Below, one piece after another: positions 4,444-56,217 of a DNA stretch of 64,000 nt. Source of the DNA: Thermodesulfovibrionia bacterium (GTDB taxonomy: Bacteria > Nitrospirota > Thermodesulfovibrionia > UBA6902); assembly GCA_020057065.1 (NCBI GenBank), contig JAGVGM010000277.1, positions 1,794 to 65,793 of the forward strand, written 5' to 3'. Under the pieces are notes generated by a model that did no database searches, was not told where the DNA came from, and saw nothing but the letters and a program-made list of their open reading frames with translations. Within the stretch, counting starts at the first letter, position 1. Each line of letters starts with the position of its first letter. The position numbers and the translations under genes were made by a program.

Positions 4444-6009
4444 ATGGAAGAAAAAGTAGAGCTGGATATAAAAAAATACTGGCGAATAATAGTCGGCAGA
4501 AGGCATATATTCATTGCAGTTGCGCTGAGCTGCATATCCGTTATAGTTTGGGGAAGCTTTTTTCTCCCCAAGATATACGAGGCTAAATCAACCGTTATGA
4601 TTGAAAGAAACATTATCAACAGTCTGGTCAAGAATTTAGCTATACCGGTGACGCTGGATGAAAGACTGAATGTGCTTTCCAATATAATGACAAGCAGACA
4701 GATCATCTTAAAGGTGATAGATGATCTTGATCTTAATGTAAAGAGCGGGAAACAGACAGATATTGAAAACCTTGTACAGAATTTCCAAAATGAAACCAAG
4801 ATCAAGATGACTAAATCCGTCACTAAAAAAGATTCGACGGACTGGTTTTCCGTCACTTACAAAGACAAAAACCCGAAGCTCGCAAGAGATTTTATCAACA
4901 CGCTGGTCAGACGTTATGTTGAAGATAACCTGTCGGCAAAGAAAGAGGAATCTTTCGAGGCCAATAAATTTCTTATGGAGCAGAGGAACTTTTTTCAGGC
5001 GAAAATAGATGCCGCAGAGGTGAAGATACTTGAATTCAGAAGAAGCAGGGGCATTTTTATAGCCCTCGATGAAAAGGCAGTGGTTGGAGAGATAAAAGCA
5101 GCTGAGGAGAATATCGAGGCCATAGGACTTCAAAGGATGGAGCTGCAGGCCAGGAAGAACATGACGGAAAAACAGCTTAAAGAGGAGAAGCCATACACAG
5201 TGGCGATGCTTGGCAAGACAAAAGGGGAGTCTTTGAATGACAGACTGCTATCGCTTCAGAATAAGTTTAACGATCTGCTGGTAAGATACACAGAAAACTA
5301 TCCCGAGGTTATTAAGGTGAAGGCGGAAATCGAAATATTGAAAAAACAGATACAGGCCAGCTCCTCACCGGAAGCAAGCTCGCAGGGGATGCAGGGCTCT
5401 GAGACTGAAATGACAACCCTGAATCCGTTTCACCAGAAACTTAAGGAAGAGCTTGCAAAGATTGACCTTGAGCTTGCGGCGCTTGCAGCGAAAGAAAAAC
5501 ATTTAATAGCCGCCATTGTTACGAAGAAGAGGTATCTGAGCGATATCCCCCTTGATAAGAAAAACCTTGCTGATCTTGAGAGAGAGAGGGACACATACAA
5601 GAAGATAGAGGACGAGCTTGTTGTGAAGCTCGGGCAGAGTGAAGTTTCCAAACAGATGGAGATAGAGGACAAGACGGAGACTTTTCGGGTAATAGATCCT
5701 GCTATTTTACCGACTAAGCCTGTAAGTCCCAACAGGGTTTTAATTATTCTTGCGGGTTTTTTGGGAGGAATTGCCGCAGGATTCGGAACGGTGCTTCTGC
5801 TTGATAACTTTGATAGTTCGATGAAAACGGTCGACCAACTCAAAAAGGATTTCAGAATGCCTGTTCTCGCCGTGATCCCGCAGATCGTTACCGACGAGGA
5901 GGTAAACAAAATGAGAAAAATGGACCGGAAGGTTTACGCCATTTCTTTGGCATACCTTTCAATAATAGGTATTCTTTTTCTAAAAGAAGCTATTGCTATG
6001 TTCCTGTAA
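4444..6009 (+). CDS. Polysaccharide chain-length determinant (Wzz/GumC-like PCP)
   Basis: N- and C-terminal TM helices flank a long coiled-coil periplasmic region. AGGAG precedes the ATG. It is paired with the downstream BY-kinase-like ATPase. Confidence 0.85.
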   Translation: MEEKVELDIKKYWRIIVGRRHIFIAVALSCISVIVWGSFFLPKIYEAKSTVMIERNIINSLVKNLAIPVTLDERLNVLSNIMTSRQIILKVIDDLDLNVKSGKQTDIENLVQNFQNETKIKMTKSVTKKDSTDWFSVTYKDKNPKLARDFINTLVRRYVEDNLSAKKEESFEANKFLMEQRNFFQAKIDAAEVKILEFRRSRGIFIALDEKAVVGEIKAAEENIEAIGLQRMELQARKNMTEKQLKEEKPYTVAMLGKTKGESLNDRLLSLQNKFNDLLVRYTENYPEVIKVKAEIEILKKQIQASSSPEASSQGMQGSETEMTTLNPFHQKLKEELAKIDLELAALAAKEKHLIAAIVTKKRYLSDIPLDKKNLADLERERDTYKKIEDELVVKLGQSEVSKQMEIEDKTETFRVIDPAILPTKPVSPNRVLIILAGFLGGIAAGFGTVLLLDNFDSSMKTVDQLKKDFRMPVLAVIPQIVTDEEVNKMRKMDRKVYAISLAYLSIIGILFLKEAIAMFL

Positions 6010-6031
6010 GGAATATCGGGAGAGGAAATAA

Positions 6032-6838
6032 ATGAGCAGGATTGAAGAAGCATTGGAAAAAGCAAAAAAAATAAGAGAGGTGGAACTTCGTGAAACAGCA
6101 AGTTCAAAAGATGTTTTCAGGAAGGTTGAATCCAGAAAGGTTGATAATCAGTATGTTATCACAATGACTAACCCTGACTCGCCTGTTGCAGAGGAATATA
6201 GAAGGCTGAAATCAATGCTTATCCGGGAGACAAAACCGGACTTTCTTAATACGGTCATGGTTACAAGTTCTATTGAAAGAGAAGGTAAAAGCATTACATC
6301 TTTAAATCTTGCGATAACGCTCGCACAGGAGATTGACCATACTATCCTTCTTATTGATGCGGATCTCAGAAGGCCAATGTTGCATGAGTATCTCGGGATC
6401 GAAGTTAAGTACGGACTTTCCGATTATTTAACTCAGGATATTGATATAGAAAAAGTATTAGTAAAGACAGGCATCGGCAATCTTATATTATTGCCTGCCG
6501 GGCATTCCGTTGAAAATCCGGCGGAACTGCTTTCTTCCCAGAAGATGAAAGATCTTGTGAACGAAGTTAAGCATCGTTACATGGACAGATATGTTATTAT
6601 TGACACACCACCGATCTTGCAGTTTGCTGACGCTATTTCAATAGGGTCACTTGTCGATGGGGTTGTTTTTGTTGTAAAAGAAGCAACTGCACAAAAGAAG
6701 TCAATTGAGAATGCATTGAATTTAATAAAGGACTTGAAGATCTTAGGGATTGTATTTAACTGTGCAAGCGTAGACAATCTTGATGGTCATTACTCAAAAT
6801 ACTATTATTACAATAAAAAAAAGAAAAAAGGGGGGTAG
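6032..6838 (+). CDS. BY-kinase-like ATPase (EpsG-like tyrosine autokinase of the PEP-CTERM locus)
   Basis: Walker A-like SSIEREGKS, Walker A' LLIDADLRRP, Walker B VIIDTPP, and a C-terminal Tyr cluster YSKYYYYNKKKKKGG. Confidence 0.8.
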   Translation: MSRIEEALEKAKKIREVELRETASSKDVFRKVESRKVDNQYVITMTNPDSPVAEEYRRLKSMLIRETKPDFLNTVMVTSSIEREGKSITSLNLAITLAQEIDHTILLIDADLRRPMLHEYLGIEVKYGLSDYLTQDIDIEKVLVKTGIGNLILLPAGHSVENPAELLSSQKMKDLVNEVKHRYMDRYVIIDTPPILQFADAISIGSLVDGVVFVVKEATAQKKSIENALNLIKDLKILGIVFNCASVDNLDGHYSKYYYYNKKKKKGG

Positions 6839-6840
6839 GA

Positions 6841-8094
6841 ATGAAAAATATCATATGTCTTTGTTCATTGGCAGTAGCGTTGTTTGCAAATGTTAGCTCT
6901 TCAATTGCTAAAGTTGATATAACCCCGAGTGTTACTTTAAGGGAAGAATATAACGATAATTTATTTCTGACAGAATCAGCTGAAGAATTTGATTATATAA
7001 CAAAGATATCTCCTGGCATCTTAATTGAATATTCTCCAGGCAGTTCATTGGACCTCAGTCTTGATTATCGTCTCGACTTCAGATTTTACAGCCGGAACAG
7101 CAAGTATAATGATACGAGTCTAAAAGACACTCAAAACGTCAACTTTAAGGCACAGGCAAGACCGTTGAGCAGAGTTTTTATTGATGTATTTGATATCTAC
7201 AAAAGAGTTCCGATTGATATTAGAAGAAAATATGCTTCCGGGAATGATTTCCAAAATATGACAGAAAGTAATGTATTTACAATTTCTCCTTATATAACAA
7301 CCCCTTTGTCGTCTACTCTCTCAACAACCTTGGGATATACATATAACAATAATTGGTATGGCAGTAAGGAAAACACTGATTCGGAAAGCCATGCAGCTTT
7401 TTTAGAGCTTACCAATAGGTTTTCATCTAAATTGTCCGGAGAATTAAAGTATGACTTTTACAAATACCTTCCGGGTGAGCATAAAACTTCTAAGTTTATT
7501 GAAGATTATGGTAAACACAGCGGTTCCATAGGGTTAACCTATCAGATAGGACCAAGCTTAACAATAAATGGACAAGCAGGAAAATCATATTTTAATTTCG
7601 AGACCAGAGATAATAAGCAAGATAATTTCTGGAATATTAATGCTGATTACAATATTAAGAAGAGTACATCTTTAGGAGCAGGGTATAGCACCACTTTGAA
7701 AGATTCATCTACTTTGGGAGCATACAAAAGCCGTAGAATTGATATGTATTTTAAAACAGAAACACCAATAAAACTATCAATAAATCCGTATCATTCACGT
7801 GATGAATATTCAGGTAATGATAGAAAAGATACAATCACTGGAATTAATGCCAATATTGTATTCCCTTTGACCAAGAAAATAGACCTTTTATGCGACGGGC
7901 TATGGGAAAGACAGAAATTTCAGCCTAAAGATGAAAAGGTTAATAAATATTCAGCAGGGCTATCCCTGGATTACAAGTACAGGGAGAAATTAACAGCCAG
8001 TCTTGGTTATAAGTACGATGGCAGGGATTCAAATATAGATACAAATAGTTTTACCAATAACATCATCTTCTTACAGGCTAAAGTGGTTTTTTAG
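6841..8094 (+). CDS. Outer-membrane beta-barrel protein associated with PEP-CTERM loci
   Basis: Signal peptide MKNIICLCSLAVALFANVSSSIA, an amphipathic beta-strand pattern rich in Y/N/S/T, and a terminal aromatic residue (...QAKVVF). Confidence 0.7.
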   Translation: MKNIICLCSLAVALFANVSSSIAKVDITPSVTLREEYNDNLFLTESAEEFDYITKISPGILIEYSPGSSLDLSLDYRLDFRFYSRNSKYNDTSLKDTQNVNFKAQARPLSRVFIDVFDIYKRVPIDIRRKYASGNDFQNMTESNVFTISPYITTPLSSTLSTTLGYTYNNNWYGSKENTDSESHAAFLELTNRFSSKLSGELKYDFYKYLPGEHKTSKFIEDYGKHSGSIGLTYQIGPSLTINGQAGKSYFNFETRDNKQDNFWNINADYNIKKSTSLGAGYSTTLKDSSTLGAYKSRRIDMYFKTETPIKLSINPYHSRDEYSGNDRKDTITGINANIVFPLTKKIDLLCDGLWERQKFQPKDEKVNKYSAGLSLDYKYREKLTASLGYKYDGRDSNIDTNSFTNNIIFLQAKVVF

Positions 8095-8103
8095 GCAACC
8101 AAG

Positions 8104-9300
8104 ATGTATGAAAGACATTTTTCATTTAAACATAAACCGTTTGATTTAGTCCCTAATCCGGACTTTCTCTTTTTAAGCAGTACCCATCAGAAAGCTATTA
8201 CTTACCTTGATTACGGTATAAAGGAAAAGATCGGTTTTATCCTGCTGACAGGCGAGATCGGTTCTGGCAAGACAACAATAATCCGGAATCTTATTAAGAG
8301 TCTGAACGGTTCATTTAAACTTTCAAGAATCCATAATACAAAAATATCCTCTGAGCAGCTTATATCAATGGTCAATGAAGATTTTGGCCTGAATATCGAG
8401 GGCAAAAATAAAACAAGATTGTTGAGCGAATTAAATGTGTTTCTTGTTGAGCAGTATTCAAGGAAATTTCAGACTATATTGCTGATTGACGAGGCGCAGA
8501 ATCTTTCACCGGATTTATTGGAGGAAATAAGACTTCTTTCCAATCTTGAGACCGACAGGGCCAAACTTCTTCAGATAATACTCGTAGGACAGCCGGATTT
8601 AAAGAAGACCCTTATGCTTCCTGAATTAATGCAATTGCGGCAGCGCATTAACATCTCCTATCATATTGCGCCTCTGACAGTCGATGAGACAGCAAAATAT
8701 ATAAAGCATCGTCTTACTGTTGCCGGAAACCCTGAGGCTATAAAGTTTGATGAGGATATGCTGCCGCTTATCTATCAATTCAGTAGAGGTATTCCGAGAC
8801 TGATAAATATCCTATGCGATTTTGCACTGCTTACCGCTTTTGTTGAGGGGAAAAAAGAAGTAACCGTTGACATTATGCGGGAAGTTGAAAAAGATCTTGA
8901 AAAGAACAATTACTGGAACGGATCTGAGGTTCAGGAGGCGGGAAAATTTAAGGAACAAGACCTGTTGAGCGTAATTGGGGATATTCCGCTAAGGATATAC
9001 AAACTCGAAGATATTGTAAAAAATAATCTTCAGGAGATTTTTTCTGTAAAGGAAAAAATTATTCAATTAGATGGGTATATGTCCAGGTCAAGTAATGGTC
9101 GGAAGGATATTCAAATAAACGAACTTTATGAACGTATATCCAGGCTCGAGAGTATGTTTTCTGATATAACCTCAATGAAGGAAAGTGATGACTCCTTTAC
9201 AGGAAATGATAAGACTGAAAAGTTAAACAATGTATCAGAACAGATTGAGATTTTAACAGATACAATCAGTAACTTGAACAAAAAAATAAAGAATCAGTAA
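8104..9300 (+). CDS. AAA ATPase, ExeA/EpsE-like (PEP-CTERM locus subfamily)
   Basis: Walker A GEIGSGKTT, Walker B LLIDEAQNL, and a conserved position after the OM barrel gene. Confidence 0.8.
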   Translation: MYERHFSFKHKPFDLVPNPDFLFLSSTHQKAITYLDYGIKEKIGFILLTGEIGSGKTTIIRNLIKSLNGSFKLSRIHNTKISSEQLISMVNEDFGLNIEGKNKTRLLSELNVFLVEQYSRKFQTILLIDEAQNLSPDLLEEIRLLSNLETDRAKLLQIILVGQPDLKKTLMLPELMQLRQRINISYHIAPLTVDETAKYIKHRLTVAGNPEAIKFDEDMLPLIYQFSRGIPRLINILCDFALLTAFVEGKKEVTVDIMREVEKDLEKNNYWNGSEVQEAGKFKEQDLLSVIGDIPLRIYKLEDIVKNNLQEIFSVKEKIIQLDGYMSRSSNGRKDIQINELYERISRLESMFSDITSMKESDDSFTGNDKTEKLNNVSEQIEILTDTISNLNKKIKNQ

Positions 9301-9516: not shown

Positions 9517-9567
9517 AAAATCTCCCCTAACCCCTCTTTGTCAAAGAGGGGGATGAAGGGGGATTTT
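9517..9567. repeat. Nested palindrome, family 1 (solo unit)
   Basis: AAAATCTCCCCTAACCCCTCTTTG/TCAAAGAGGGGGATGAAGGGGGATTTT. The outer arms AAAATC-C4 / G5-ATTTT enclose the inner hairpin CCCCTCTTTG/CAAAGAGGGG. Confidence 0.85.
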
Positions 9568-22267: not shown

Positions 22268-22347
22268 CCTGTATAATGCAGACATTGTTCGGTTGGTCTG
22301 GAAAGAATGTAGATAAGATATTATGAGTCAGGACAGCCTTAATGTTG

Positions 22348-22789
22348 CCCCCCCCTTTAGAAAAGGGGGGTAGGGGGGATTTGAAGACTTGTCAGGCAAC
22401 TATGCTTACTTACAATAAAAGATTAAAACCATTATCGAGAAGCCTAAGAAGCAATATGACTGATGCAGAGAGATTGCTGTGGTCAAAAATAAGAAGAAAG
22501 CAATTAAAAGGATTTCAATTTTACCGGCAGAAGGTTATTGGCAATTATATTGCTGATTTCTACTGCCCCGAATTAAAGCTGGTCATTGAAGTTGACGGCG
22601 GCCAACATTACAGTGCTGAAGGTAGGGAGAATGATCGTATGAGAGATGCTTACATGTCAGGAGCAGGGATAACTGTTGTAAGGTTTTCAGATAGAGATGT
22701 ATTGAAGGATCTCAAAGCTGTCCTGGAAGAAATATGGAAAAAATTATAATTATAAAATCCCCCTTCATCCCCCTTTTTCAAAGTGGGAG
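22348..22789 (+). mobile_element. Compact TIR-bounded unit carrying a DUF559 ORF (putative selfish/mobile element)
   Basis: Left arm 22348-22382 is CCCCCCCCTTTAGAAAAGGGGGGTAGGGGGGATTT. Right arm 22754-22789 is AAAATCCCCCTTCATCCCCCTTTTTCAAAGTGGGAG, whose reverse complement aligns with the left arm. The ORF starts 19 nt after the left arm and stops 4 nt before the right arm. Confidence 0.45.
22402..22749 (+). CDS. DUF559 endonuclease-domain protein (Vsr-like fold)
   Basis: ARSLRSNMTDAERLLWSKIRRKQLKGFQFYRQ..IADFYCPELKLVIEVDGGQHY. The ORF-track N-terminus (MLPPPLEKGGRGDL) is a translation of the palindrome, so ATG 22402 is preferred. Confidence 0.85.
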   Translation: MLTYNKRLKPLSRSLRSNMTDAERLLWSKIRRKQLKGFQFYRQKVIGNYIADFYCPELKLVIEVDGGQHYSAEGRENDRMRDAYMSGAGITVVRFSDRDVLKDLKAVLEEIWKKL

Positions 22790-22834
22790 ACAGAAATTAA
22801 CCCTCACTTTTATGCGAAGCCCCAATAACTAATT

Positions 22835-33657: not shown

Positions 33658-35340
33658 ATGAAAAACAAAAAAGTTTTTATCATTGGTCTTGACGGACTGT
33701 CGTTCGAAATTCTTGATCAGGTAAGGCATAAATTTAACCTGATCAATATAAACCATATACTGGAGAGTGGGGCGTCAGGACATATGAAGTCGGTATTGCC
33801 GTATTCATCCGCGCCTAATTGGGCTTCTTTAAGCACCGGGGTCAATCCGGGGAAGCATGGATTTTACAGTTTTTACTTCCCCAGGGAAAATGCTTATGAG
33901 CATCAATTCCCTAATTCTACTCACATAAAATACAAGCGTGTCTGGGACCTGGTTGGAGAGTCGGGAAGAAAAGCGCTGGTAATTAATGTTCCCGGCACAT
34001 ATCCGCCCGATAAAATTAACGGTCATATGATTACGTGCATGCTGACGCCCGGGATAAACAGTGATTTCGGCTATCCTAATAACTTAGCCGATGAGATCAG
34101 AGAAAAGTTCCCTGACTATTCATTTGACATAAACTGGAAAGAATTTAAGGATGACAGAAAAGATCAGTTGGTGGATGCGCTCATCGGTTCGGCAAAAACA
34201 AGGAGGGATCTAATCAGGTATATGCTGGAAAAATACCCGGCGGATTTTAACATGATTGTCTTCACCGAGACAGACAGGCTTTTCCATTCAGCATTAAATT
34301 TGATCGATAAGAGACATCCGCTTTTTGATAAGGATGCTTCAGAAAAGAATATGGAAGGTATAGAAGAAATATTCAGGACTATAGATTCATTCATAGGGGA
34401 AGTTCTTACAAAGTACGCTGATAACTGTACTATTATCCTTATCTCAGATCACGGTTTTTCGCCGGCTTATAAAAAGGTCTACTTAAACAACTGGCTCTCG
34501 GAGCGCGGCCTTTTATCGATAAGGACAGAGGAAGCAGATAAGACGAAATTTTTTTTAAAGGCGGCTGTAAAAACTGTTTTTGGATTGTTTGGCATTACAG
34601 GTGAGAGAAGGATAAAGCTGCAGGACAAGTTGCTGCTCTTTCTGAGAGAGAGGAAAGGAATACCGATACTGGATAGTATCTCCAGGCCTCTTGCTAATAT
34701 AGCAGATTCTATGTCAAGGACCAACTGGGTGAAAACGAAAGCCTATTATTTGCAAGAGTGGGGGATCAGGATAAACTTGAAAGGCAGGGAGCCGCAGGGT
34801 ATTGTTGAGGAGAATGAGTATGAGCACCTTAGAGAAGAGATCATTCAGTCGATCATGAAGCTTGAAGACCCCGACAGTGGGAAGAGAATCATCAAGGAGG
34901 CTTTAAGGAGAGAAGATGTTTGTTCCGGCGAAGAATTTGCAAATGCGCCTGATATATTTTTGATCACTGAAGACTCACCCGGGTATGAGTTGACCTCCGC
35001 ACTGTCCTCAAAAAATATTTTTGACAAAATAGAAGGGAAGACAGGCGAGCACTCCTTGTACGGAATGTTTGCAATGAAAGGTGATAATGTTCAAAAAGGG
35101 TCGGTGGATAATATCTCAACGATCGACATCGTCCCCACTGTTTTATACGCATTTGGATTGCCGATACCTGATTATATCGACGGCAAGGTCATAACACAGA
35201 CCTTTACTGAAGAATTCCGGAAAAAGAATCAGGTGACCTATGGCGCTGATACTTCAAAAAAGGATGTTACTGAAGAAGAATTCAGCTCAGAGGATGAAGA
35301 AGCAATAAAAGACCGGCTAAAAGGGTTGGGATATTATTAG
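33658..35340 (+). CDS. Alkaline-phosphatase-superfamily protein (type I phosphodiesterase/nucleotide pyrophosphatase-like)
   Basis: VFIIGLDGLSFEILD, SSAPNWASLSTGVNPGKHG and ISDHGF. It is a paralog of 53237-54568. Confidence 0.75.
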   Translation: MKNKKVFIIGLDGLSFEILDQVRHKFNLININHILESGASGHMKSVLPYSSAPNWASLSTGVNPGKHGFYSFYFPRENAYEHQFPNSTHIKYKRVWDLVGESGRKALVINVPGTYPPDKINGHMITCMLTPGINSDFGYPNNLADEIREKFPDYSFDINWKEFKDDRKDQLVDALIGSAKTRRDLIRYMLEKYPADFNMIVFTETDRLFHSALNLIDKRHPLFDKDASEKNMEGIEEIFRTIDSFIGEVLTKYADNCTIILISDHGFSPAYKKVYLNNWLSERGLLSIRTEEADKTKFFLKAAVKTVFGLFGITGERRIKLQDKLLLFLRERKGIPILDSISRPLANIADSMSRTNWVKTKAYYLQEWGIRINLKGREPQGIVEENEYEHLREEIIQSIMKLEDPDSGKRIIKEALRREDVCSGEEFANAPDIFLITEDSPGYELTSALSSKNIFDKIEGKTGEHSLYGMFAMKGDNVQKGSVDNISTIDIVPTVLYAFGLPIPDYIDGKVITQTFTEEFRKKNQVTYGADTSKKDVTEEEFSSEDEEAIKDRLKGLGYY

Positions 35341-35369
35341 GAAAAAATTATTCAGATAACCGAGAGGGT

Positions 35370-35452
35370 AAATCCCTCCCTTTAAAAAAGGGGAGGTGAG
35401 GGGGGGATTTGAATCTATGATTAGACAAAATCTCCCCTTGCCACTCAAAAGC
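35370..35452. repeat. Family-1 palindrome pair without cargo (MITE-like)
   Basis: AAATCCCTCCCTTTAAAAAAGGGGAGGTGAGGGGGGGATTTGAA, then a 13-bp spacer, then a degenerate AAAATCTCCCCTTGCCACTCAAAAGC. Confidence 0.7.
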
Positions 35453-46549: not shown

Positions 46550-46635
46550 GTTTCTTCGGCAGCCTGGCCATCCCAATACTGCGGGATCCGCGGCTTTGTG
46601 CCCCCCGGTTACCCGGGGTTTACCGTTTCGGAAAC
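46550..46635 (-). ncRNA. Candidate c-di-GMP-I (GEMM-I-like) riboswitch aptamer in the 5' leader
   Basis: A GC-rich island in AT-rich intergenic DNA. The RNA reads GUUUCCGAAACGGUAAACCCCGGGUAACCGGGGGGCACAAAGCCGCGGAUCCCGCAGUAUUGGGAUGGCCAGGCUGCCGAAGAAAC. The layout is GGUAAA, a 6-bp stem with a GUAA (GNRA) loop, GGCACAAAGCC, then a second hairpin. This mirrors the remembered Vc2 GGGCAAA-stem(GAAA)-GGACGCAAAGCC-stem. Confidence 0.4.
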
Positions 46636-49798: not shown

Positions 49799-49989
49799 GG
49801 GTAACGCTAATTCCCCCTTTGAAAAAGGGGCTGGGCTCCCGTTGCTGCGAAGCATTGCAACGGGAAGCAGGGGGATTTTGTAATAAAAATATTCATCAAA
49901 AAATCTCCCCTAACCCCTGCTTAAGGCACCTACTGTTGGTCTTTTTCAAAGAGGGGAATTAAATACGCCACCCTTCACTGAAGGGTTAC
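49799..49989. repeat. Composite cargo-less family-1 element with nested secondary palindromes
   Basis: TTCCCCCTTTGAAAAAGGGG, an insert (CCCGTTGC..GCAACGGG), GGGGGATTTTG, a 19-bp spacer, AAAATCTCCCCTAACCCC, another insert, then TTTTTCAAAGAGGGGAA. It is flanked by GGGTAACG ... CCACCCTTCACTGAAGGGTTAC. Confidence 0.8.
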
Positions 49990-56130: not shown

Positions 56131-56217
56131 GCCGGAGTGGCGGAATTGGTAGACGCAAGGGACTTAAAATCCCTCGTCAGCAATGGCGTACCGGTTCGAG
56201 TCCGGTCTTCGGTACCA
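56131..56217 (+). tRNA. tRNA-Leu (anticodon UAA), class II with a long variable arm; CCA encoded
   Basis: Acceptor GCCGGAG/CTTCGGT, anticodon stem AGGGA/TCCCT with loop CTTAAAA, and T-arm ACCGG-TTCGAGT-CCGGT. Confidence 0.9.

Follow-up and report, generated by a model that had tools for sequence, protein, structure and literature searches.

The stretch analysed here, hereafter the window, is 64,000 nt of contig JAGVGM010000277.1 from a Thermodesulfovibrionia bacterium. In its eps operon, between the genes for a hexapeptide acetyltransferase and an AsnB-like protein, we find a small element that holds a single gene, for an endonuclease of the DUF559 family. The gene is bracketed by two palindromic arms and, further out, by a second pair of terminal inverted repeats (TIRs). 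An earlier note on this DNA had described the hairpin-bearing arms and the DUF559 open reading frame (ORF) as a 442-bp unit at 22348-22789. The arms and the ORF have the sequence that it gave, while the boundaries lie further out: in flank alignments of the closest relatives, conserved sequence extends ~57 nt upstream and ~34 nt downstream of 22348-22789, up to the outer TIRs. The arms, which had been taken for the termini, are thus an inner layer of a 533-bp element at 22291-22823. Comparison with its relatives firmly supports the reading of this element as a decayed, ISL3-type non-autonomous element that carries a conserved cassette, a predicted nuclease gene between palindromes of the triplex class. 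Its parts are the following.

22291..22823, + strand: whole element, 533 bp, non-autonomous, decayed, of apparent ISL3 type; limits set by homology to the two copies in locus L083, to loci L001, L004 and L017, and to others
22291..22316, + strand: left outer TIR, degenerate, GGTTGGTCTGGAAAGAATGTAGATAA (consensus of the relatives GGCTCATCGTGnAAGAGTGTGGGTAA); from alignments and the TIR table
22348..22382, + strand: left arm, C8-TTT-AG-AAAA-G6-TA-G6-ATTT, a hairpin plus a mirror block; 8 triads in the triplex test
22402..22749, + strand: intact gene for a DUF559 (YcjD-family, Vsr/EDxHD-fold) endonuclease, 115 aa; from Pfam, PDB and an AlphaFold2 (AF2) model
22754..22789, − strand: right arm, AAAATCCCCC-TTCAT-CCCCC-TTTTT-C-AAAGTGGGAG (also written AAAATCCCCC-TTCAT-CCCCCTTTTTCAAAGTGGGAG); 8 triads in the triplex test
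22797..22823, − strand: right outer TIR, TTAACCCTCACTTTTATGCGAAGCCCC (reverse complement GGGGCTTCGCATAAAAGTGAGGGTTAA); from alignments and the TIR table

The window shares the eps gene order Wzy, GT4, hexapeptide acetyltransferase, AsnB-like with two relatives (L169 and L170). At both of these orthologous loci the two genes are translationally coupled, and the stop codon of the acetyltransferase gene overlaps the start of the AsnB gene, leaving no intergenic DNA at all, as compared with 567 bp between the two genes in the window. Neither the DUF559 gene nor the repeats, and hence no arm pair, are present there. L169 and L170 are the empty site for the window element, and the unit is therefore an insertion that interrupts the operon, as the earlier note had proposed.

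In the relatives of the window element, the outer repeats read GGCTCTTCG..GTGGGTAA and are bordered by exact 8-bp, AT-rich target-site duplications (TSDs). Two copies in L083 lie 6 kb apart on one contig, and the homology between them begins precisely at GGCTCATCGTGTAAGAGTGTGGGT (tip GGCTCATCGTG). At its right end the first copy has the inverse sequence, ACCCACACTCTTACACTAAGACCC, and one octamer, ATAATTTT, adjoins it on either side. An intact copy is L083:9960-10482, to which ISL3 inverted repeats reading GGGTCTTCGCG..GTGTGGGT would correspond. A blind scan of the 139 copies for which both flanks were available, requiring a terminal inverted repeat together with an exact 8-bp duplication, gave 10 matches, seven of which have these same termini, as against 0-3 when the flanks were paired across loci. 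In a targeted scan of 142 copies, both ISL3-type TIRs were present in 17, all belonging to a clade that is 67-83% identical to the window protein. Duplications matching at 8/8 positions were found in nine of these 17 and at 7/8 in another three, all AT-rich (for example ATAATTTT, AAAATTTT, ATGAATAA, TGAATTTA, AAAAAATT, ATAAATTA and AAATTTTG), and the elements measure 523-603 bp. One metagenome contains elements that are 98-99% identical to each other at three sites (L094, L095 and L102), with three different duplications.

Inverted repeats that start with GGCTCTTCG, together with 8-bp direct repeats, have been described for the ISL3 element ISArsp7 (PMC6305408) and for Microcystis ISL3 elements and their MITE, a miniature transposable element with inverted repeats (PMC11448079). 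We also found that transposase-bearing ISL3 elements with near-identical TIRs exist. In a pattern scan of viral contigs, L165, L167 and L168 carry GGGTCTTCGCGGATCAGTGTGGGT and, further inward, an ORF end ..RSAYGYRDEDYLRLKII.. that matches the C-terminus of annotated ISL3 transposases in tblastn, and an ISRta1-like element has GGTTCTTCG.. ends with an 8-bp duplication AAAAAAAA. The window element itself has degenerate tips, GGTTGGTCTGG and GGGGCTTCGCA, and its sole ORF is the 115-aa DUF559 ORF. The sole mobility signature seen, an outer TIR beginning GGCTCTTCG.. with an exact 8-bp TSD in nine of the 17 copies, is thus of the ISL3 DDE type, and the element encodes no transposase, so that the earlier proposal of an autonomous element is not supported. 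Because there is no transposase on board, the window clade most likely moves as a non-autonomous element with a transposase acting in trans. The degenerate termini and the lack of a surviving duplication indicate that the window element is an old copy. The copy nearest to it by its flanks, L048:2728-3073, is frameshifted and a pseudogene.

In copies that lack ISL3 ends, the outer edges of the hairpins were inspected for target duplications and none was consistently present; the flanks there tend to read ..TAAT / AAT... Homology between copies in general often ends at this edge, ~55 nt upstream and ~45 nt downstream. Searching the whole intact element against plasmids with blastn returned short arm-like matches only and no annotated insertion sequence (IS). 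Apparent cases of multiplication were set aside where they had another origin: the identical protein P0087, present on 35 contigs, represents one stable locus in one widespread organism, and the tandem copies in L054 (2250-3550) arose from a ~615-bp segmental duplication that includes the cassette and the 5' part of the downstream gene. Separately, L129 has ~840 nt (595-1488) directly upstream of its DUF559 cassette that are extra relative to the otherwise orthologous L126.

The two arms form a 33-nt inverted repeat with 73% complementarity. Their blocks, CCCCCTTT / AGAA / AAGGGGGG / TA / GGGGGGAT, succeed one another as pyrimidine, loop, complementary purine, loop and mirror purine. The triplex potential lies on the coding strand for the left arm and on the bottom strand for the right arm, with loops of 2-7 nt. 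By the formal criterion of three consecutive blocks (pyrimidine, complementary purine, mirror purine) with stems of at least 6-8 and short loops, the window contains five triplex sites as compared with 0.35 expected, and the motif GGGGG-N2-8-GGGGGATTT (G5-N2-8-G5ATTT) occurs 4 times in the window versus 0 in 100 shuffles. The window arms are therefore predicted to be class II potential intrastrand triplex motifs, which places them in the BoxC/PIT/TM class and not in a new repeat type. No RNA family was found in an Rfam scan of the arms. In a promoter and terminator scan, T-runs were absent after the arms, indicating that they are not intrinsic terminators.

Repeats of the BoxC/PIT/triplex kind have been known since the early 1990s. 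BoxC, the later PIT elements and the still later TM/TMECO motifs constitute one described class (Holder et al. 2015, PMC4666352). TM motifs are conserved in >260 genomes, where they occur singly or in closely spaced inverted pairs at unstable loci; no mobility gene near them and no functional link to neighbouring genes was reported (PMC4666352). In the same work, triplex formation was observed in vitro for E. coli TMECO oligonucleotides only and is unsupported in vivo, and PIT elements had neither promoter nor terminator activity in E. coli.

To place the window cassette among its homologues, 155 copies were fetched from genome and metagenome collections, covering Nitrospirota, Thermodesulfobacteriota, Nitrospinota, Chlorobiota, Elusimicrobiota, Bacillota, Zixibacteria, Dehalococcoidia, Patescibacteria and Geobacteraceae, among others. 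Many loci come from metagenome-assembled genomes, whose taxonomic labels can be wrong, and all were chosen for having a DUF559 gene; the repeat densities of their flanks are not those of an unbiased genome sample. In 82% of the 155 copies, the 70 nt upstream of the gene share a significant inverted repeat with the 90 nt downstream of it, versus 5.6% of control windows from the same loci. The upstream arm (hairpin plus outer G-run) was found in 99 of the 155 copies and in the opposite polarity in 2; the downstream arm (outer C-run plus hairpin) was found in 110, with 11 in the opposite polarity. The background for either arm type is 0.005 per window. By the triplex criterion, 101 copies have an upstream and 111 a downstream motif, as compared with none of 122 controls.

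In distant members of the family the architecture is kept and the arm sequence varies with the gene lineage. TMECO-like arms accompany the homologues of Stahlbacteria, Glaesserella and Methylomonas, and the TMECO consensus itself is matched by the arms of L077 (gammaproteobacterial) and of S. meliloti (alphaproteobacterial). One non-coding arm, AAAATCTCCCCTAACCCCTCTTT.., recurs in Nitrospirota, Chlorobiota, Thermodesulfobacteriota, Smithella, Zixibacteria and others. Of eight cultured isolates, an independent sample drawn from a plasmid collection, six to seven have this layout as well: it is seen in Deinococcus, Picosynechococcus PCC 7002 (pAQ6), S. meliloti (pSymB), Sphingomonas and Pseudanabaena, and partly in Photobacterium. 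Taken together, it is firmly supported that the gene-plus-arms cassette is general, with one fixed polarity in many phyla, and the expectation that DUF559 homologues would be flanked by the arms is borne out far above chance. As a separate observation, the cassette on a Sphingomonas parapaucimobilis plasmid (L177, NZ_CP155753.1 112360-113177), which has perfect lineage-specific arms, lies between sufB and sufC of the Fe-S cluster assembly operon.

The window ORF begins with an ATG 19 nt past the left arm and ends 4 nt ahead of the right arm. Its product matches PF04480 over profile positions 2-108 of 109 (E 7.9e-35), PDB entry 3HRL (E 3e-20) and NCBIfam PRK09767 (E 2e-20, under the equivalog cut-off). 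The AF2 model (pLDDT 89), which has a Vsr-type alpha/beta fold, gives 3HRL as its best Foldseek match (TM-score 0.86), followed by the catalytic domain of I-Bth0305I (3R3P, probability 1.0, TM-score 0.75) and then by the nuclease domains of PvuRts1I and AbaSI, so that, with the uncharacterised 3HRL set aside, no neighbour of known function is closer in structure than the homing endonuclease I-Bth0305I. Within the motif D52..E63-x-D65-G-x-Q-H69, residues D52, E63, D65 and H69 are invariant in 28 sequences. The ratio of nonsynonymous to synonymous substitution rates (dN/dS) has a median of 0.13 over 555 pairs within the clade. The gene is under strong purifying selection and is functional, and nuclease activity is predicted for its product from sequence. 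A Pfam scan gave no match of the window protein to the HUH Y1 (TnpA_REP) family. PADLOC gave weak partial matches only (DpdF nuclease domains and a methyl-directed restriction endonuclease), and a known defence system was rejected as an assignment.

A longer database form of the protein, of 135 aa, starts at 22342 and reads MLPPPLEKGGRGDL, which is the left arm in translation. Extensions of homologues, such as PPLEKGGRGDL, PPFRKGGQGGFE and SLKNPPSSPFFKGG, are likewise translated arms. The Pro/Gly-rich extensions of annotated DUF559 proteins, which the earlier note had suspected to be translated palindromes at the N-terminus, are found at both the N- and the C-terminus and amount to a systematic annotation artefact.

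Arm sequences without the gene are found at other sites of the window, as had been noticed before, and their limits and spacings are corrected here.

9517..9567, no strand assigned: complete palindrome standing alone, a dispersed member of the repeat family of the arms, with an outer-left arm, a hairpin and an outer-right arm; triplex potential on either strand, ISL3 ends absent
35324..35452, + strand: gene-less decayed copy, aligned to the gene-deleted element from the left end (z = 13.9)
49813..49956, + strand: gene-less arm pair, arms 20 nt apart, with a weaker alignment to the element (z = 4.5-7.2)

In the decayed copy, the left end survives as remnants; the left arm is kept (35370-35410, with a TM site at 35374-35407), as is, of the right arm, the outer-left block (35427-35437). 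[quoted passage not shown] Two nested inserts were seen in the pair at 49813-49956: an unrelated 32-nt hairpin at 49836-49867, CTCCCGTTGC..GCAACGGGAAG, placed between the hairpin and the outer G-run of one arm, and a 21-nt insert at 49920-49940 that splits the partner arm. In the fetched loci we counted 24 gene-less arm pairs with spacers of 11-49 nt. Among the gene-less units, L105:1768-1945 retains the first ~60 and the last ~15 nt of the coding sequence and is a true internal deletion, since both ends of the coding sequence remain. Two DUF559 copies on the contig of L089 are separated by a long array of arm units that lack the gene (5355-8132). The array has an 11-nt junction, GGGGGATTTGAG|ATTATAAAATCTCCCC, and degenerate G-rich half-hairpins are interspersed among its units. 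With L105 and the L089 array, gene-deleted derivatives of the gene-bearing element do exist, as the earlier note had suggested.

The solo palindromes that were examined have neither ISL3 ends nor target duplications, and comparison of pairwise orthologous loci gave no clean repeat insertion polymorphism. The DUF559 coding sequence itself contains, at L001:3168-3212 and at L009:3168-3212, a complete palindrome of the family, 45 nt long, which lies in frame directly before the catalytic E-x-D-G and replaces ~15 nt there. These two homologues are diverged and share the position of the palindrome in opposite orientations, which points to site-specific insertion without TSD, or flipping, of the small palindromes.

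E. coli offers a view of the same association in a cultured species. In K-12 (L164, NC_000913.3 1351150-1351850), the ycjD stop codon lies inside a truncated BoxC-type arm, and ~40 nt of the ycjD 3' end are duplicated downstream, followed by a canonical BoxC/TMECO. The gene is present in 3377 of 5426 complete E. coli genomes; in the sapF-fabI interval, phylogroups A, B1 and C have ycjD and the others the eefRABCD efflux operon (PMC12817139). In 60 evenly spaced genomes, the median number of BoxC-like sites was 17 with ycjD versus 3 without (p = 2e-9). By group, ycjD-positive A/B1/C-type genomes have ~14-26 sites and ST131/B2-type genomes 1-4, with 1-3 in ST131. Although ycjD is absent from O157:H7, ~12 sites are present there, and genomes of the O157:H7 type have 9-13; ycjD-positive genomes with a longer allele have 9-12, as in their ycjD-negative relatives. 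The raw difference expected from the earlier note is strong, yet it tracks phylogroup, and we regard the relation between ycjD and BoxC copy number as a lead, not a proof.

From these observations, we consider it probable that the window holds an old, immobilised, ISL3-ended non-autonomous element with a nuclease-between-palindromes cassette inside it. In this reading, an ISL3 DDE transposase would act in trans to transpose the window clade. The cassette would be the older unit, and would persist because the nuclease nicks or cuts its own flanking triplex or hairpin motifs and the dispersed copies of them. Host recombination may then place copies of the arms, at times together with the gene, at further positions, which would amount to a homing-like spread among repeats. 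Several points weigh against this reading. The TIRs of the window copy are degenerate and a target duplication is not recognisable (cattgttc versus aataacta), so that its ISL3 nature follows from homology to better-preserved copies while its own ends are decayed. ISL3 ends were not seen in 125 of the 142 copies, mostly in more distant clades. A tblastn search of the window and of ~0.9 Mb of fetched flanks gave no ISL3 transposase, and the contigs that supplied the matching transposase fragments are unrelated and GC-rich. The E. coli difference follows phylogroup and is not supported by the only independent contrast that is visible. Finally, the action of the nuclease on the arms and the mobilisation of dispersed palindromes are steps that we infer from sequence.

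A broader reading, possible and here offered tentatively, is that DUF559/YcjD nucleases are dedicated partner enzymes of BoxC/PIT/triplex repeats, a nuclease-based counterpart of the system of repetitive extragenic palindromes (REP) and REP-associated tyrosine transposases (RAYT). A gene inside an inverted motif pair would seed a genome by horizontal transfer, here by way of ISL3 ends, and cutting at the motifs would drive both their spread and the genome instability reported at such sites. In the autonomous form that the earlier note had favoured, the DUF559 nuclease would itself mobilise its cassette and the dispersed G5/C5 palindromes, with MITE-like offspring as in REP/RAYT, and this appears rather unlikely. 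The fixed polarity of the arms in many phyla with arm sequences that change with the gene lineage, the arm AAAATCTCCCCTAACCCCTCTTT.. common to many groups as if travelling with the gene, the gene-deleted derivatives, the purifying selection and the E. coli medians would all agree with it. However, the sole insertion signature, TIR plus 8-bp TSD, is ISL3-type, and the solo palindromes lack TSDs and TIRs. In E. coli, O157:H7 has its sites without ycjD, and the longer-allele genomes resemble the negatives. Moreover, a PD-(D/E)XK nuclease alone should be incapable of strand transfer, because no such nuclease is known to rejoin DNA. We also think it unlikely that DUF559 is a free-standing homing endonuclease gene which parasitises pre-existing arm pairs, the gene-less pairs being its targets and not its descendants. 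Its product would cut where the two arms of an empty pair meet (..G5ATTT-spacer-AAATC5..), and recombination, with the ~35-nt arms as homology, would copy the gene in. The structural proximity to I-Bth0305I is suggestive here, as is the position of the gene, always exactly between the outer-right and outer-left blocks with a palindromic junction when the gene is absent. The 24 gene-less pairs and the homology that often stops at the outer hairpin edge point the same way. On the other hand, L105 shows deletion to be the origin of some gene-less units at least, the arms offer little length for RecA-dependent copying, and a polymorphic occupied/empty pair at one locus was not found.

A further possibility, which we judge very unlikely, is that the arms are cis-regulatory, that they control the expression of a nuclease gene that is potentially toxic and are inherited with it for this purpose, and that they have no part in mobility. 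On this view the upstream G-run would extend over the ribosome-binding region, with which the downstream C-run would be able to pair in the mRNA. The spacing in many clades would agree with this, since the outer-right block precedes the start codon by 5-9 nt and the outer-left block is overlapped by the stop codon; the outer blocks are also mutually complementary. In the window clade, however, the spacing is 19-24 nt, and the same motifs are dispersed by dozens without the gene; the inactivity of PIT elements as promoters or terminators in E. coli (PMC4666352) and the Rfam negative also speak against it. That palindromic repeats were inserted by chance beside a resident housekeeping gene has next to no credit. 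It is true that insertions of such palindromes are seen at many places, the DUF559 coding sequence among them (L001 and L009), but the polarity bias of 99:2 and 110:11, >100-fold over background, the co-transfer of arms and gene in TSD-flanked elements, and the orthologous locus with neither gene nor repeats effectively refute it.

The preferred reading, an immobilised ISL3-ended element with an older nuclease cassette, relates the window to several known systems. The element shares with ISL3 IS elements, MITEs and mobile insertion cassettes (ISArsp7; the Microcystis ISL3-derived MITE, PMC11448079) the TIR start GG(C/G)TC(T/A)TCG, the 8-bp AT-rich duplications, the small size and the absence of a transposase from the element. 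In contrast to these MITEs, window-type elements hold a selected protein-coding cargo and internal inverted palindromes, the window copy is decayed, and its cognate transposase was not found in the window or the ~0.9 Mb of flanks. With the BoxC/PIT/TM repeats (PMC4666352) the arms share the succession of C-block, loop, G-block, loop and mirror G-block with short loops, and the occurrence as single motifs or closely spaced inverted pairs, highly conserved in distant bacteria. Here, however, the inverted pair consistently brackets one gene family, and the G5/C5-ATTT variant of the window is unlike TMECO in sequence.

The comparison with REP/REPIN and RAYT holds in that one small gene lies within inverted copies of the genome's dispersed, lineage-variable palindromic repeat. 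It fails for the enzyme: DUF559 is a Vsr-fold, PD-(D/E)XK-type nuclease and not an HUH Y1 transposase, and is therefore expected to be unable to religate DNA. The DUF559 gene is also horizontally spread and sometimes multi-copy. With Vsr and the EDxHD/Vsr-like homing endonucleases (I-Bth0305I, PDB 3R3P) the family shares the catalytic fold, relatives in the Pfam clan and the acidic/His motif, whereas it lacks a large DNA-binding domain as well as an intron or intein host. NGO0050 (PDB 3HRL) and E. coli YcjD are direct, uncharacterised family members, and arm-like motifs adjoin both genes.

A DUF559-palindrome mobility system was not found in a literature search made largely without subscription journals. 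The DUF559-palindrome association is real and apparently undescribed, and the mobility signature demonstrated for it belongs to a different enzyme family. The BoxC/PIT/triplex repeats, long unexplained, thereby gain a candidate partner enzyme. Published work names no gene that explains their origin or spread (PMC4666352), and a conserved nuclease gene under selection, in nearly all cases boxed by an inverted pair of the motifs, makes the question directly testable. Model organisms are available for this purpose, because the association reaches from uncultured Nitrospirota as far as ycjD of E. coli, S. meliloti and Picosynechococcus PCC 7002. In addition, ISL3-type miniature elements can carry a selected cargo gene across phyla. 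The window also contains a c-di-GMP-I riboswitch at 46555-46634 (− strand, 61 bits) and a tRNA gene at 56131-56214 (+ strand), both unrelated to the element.

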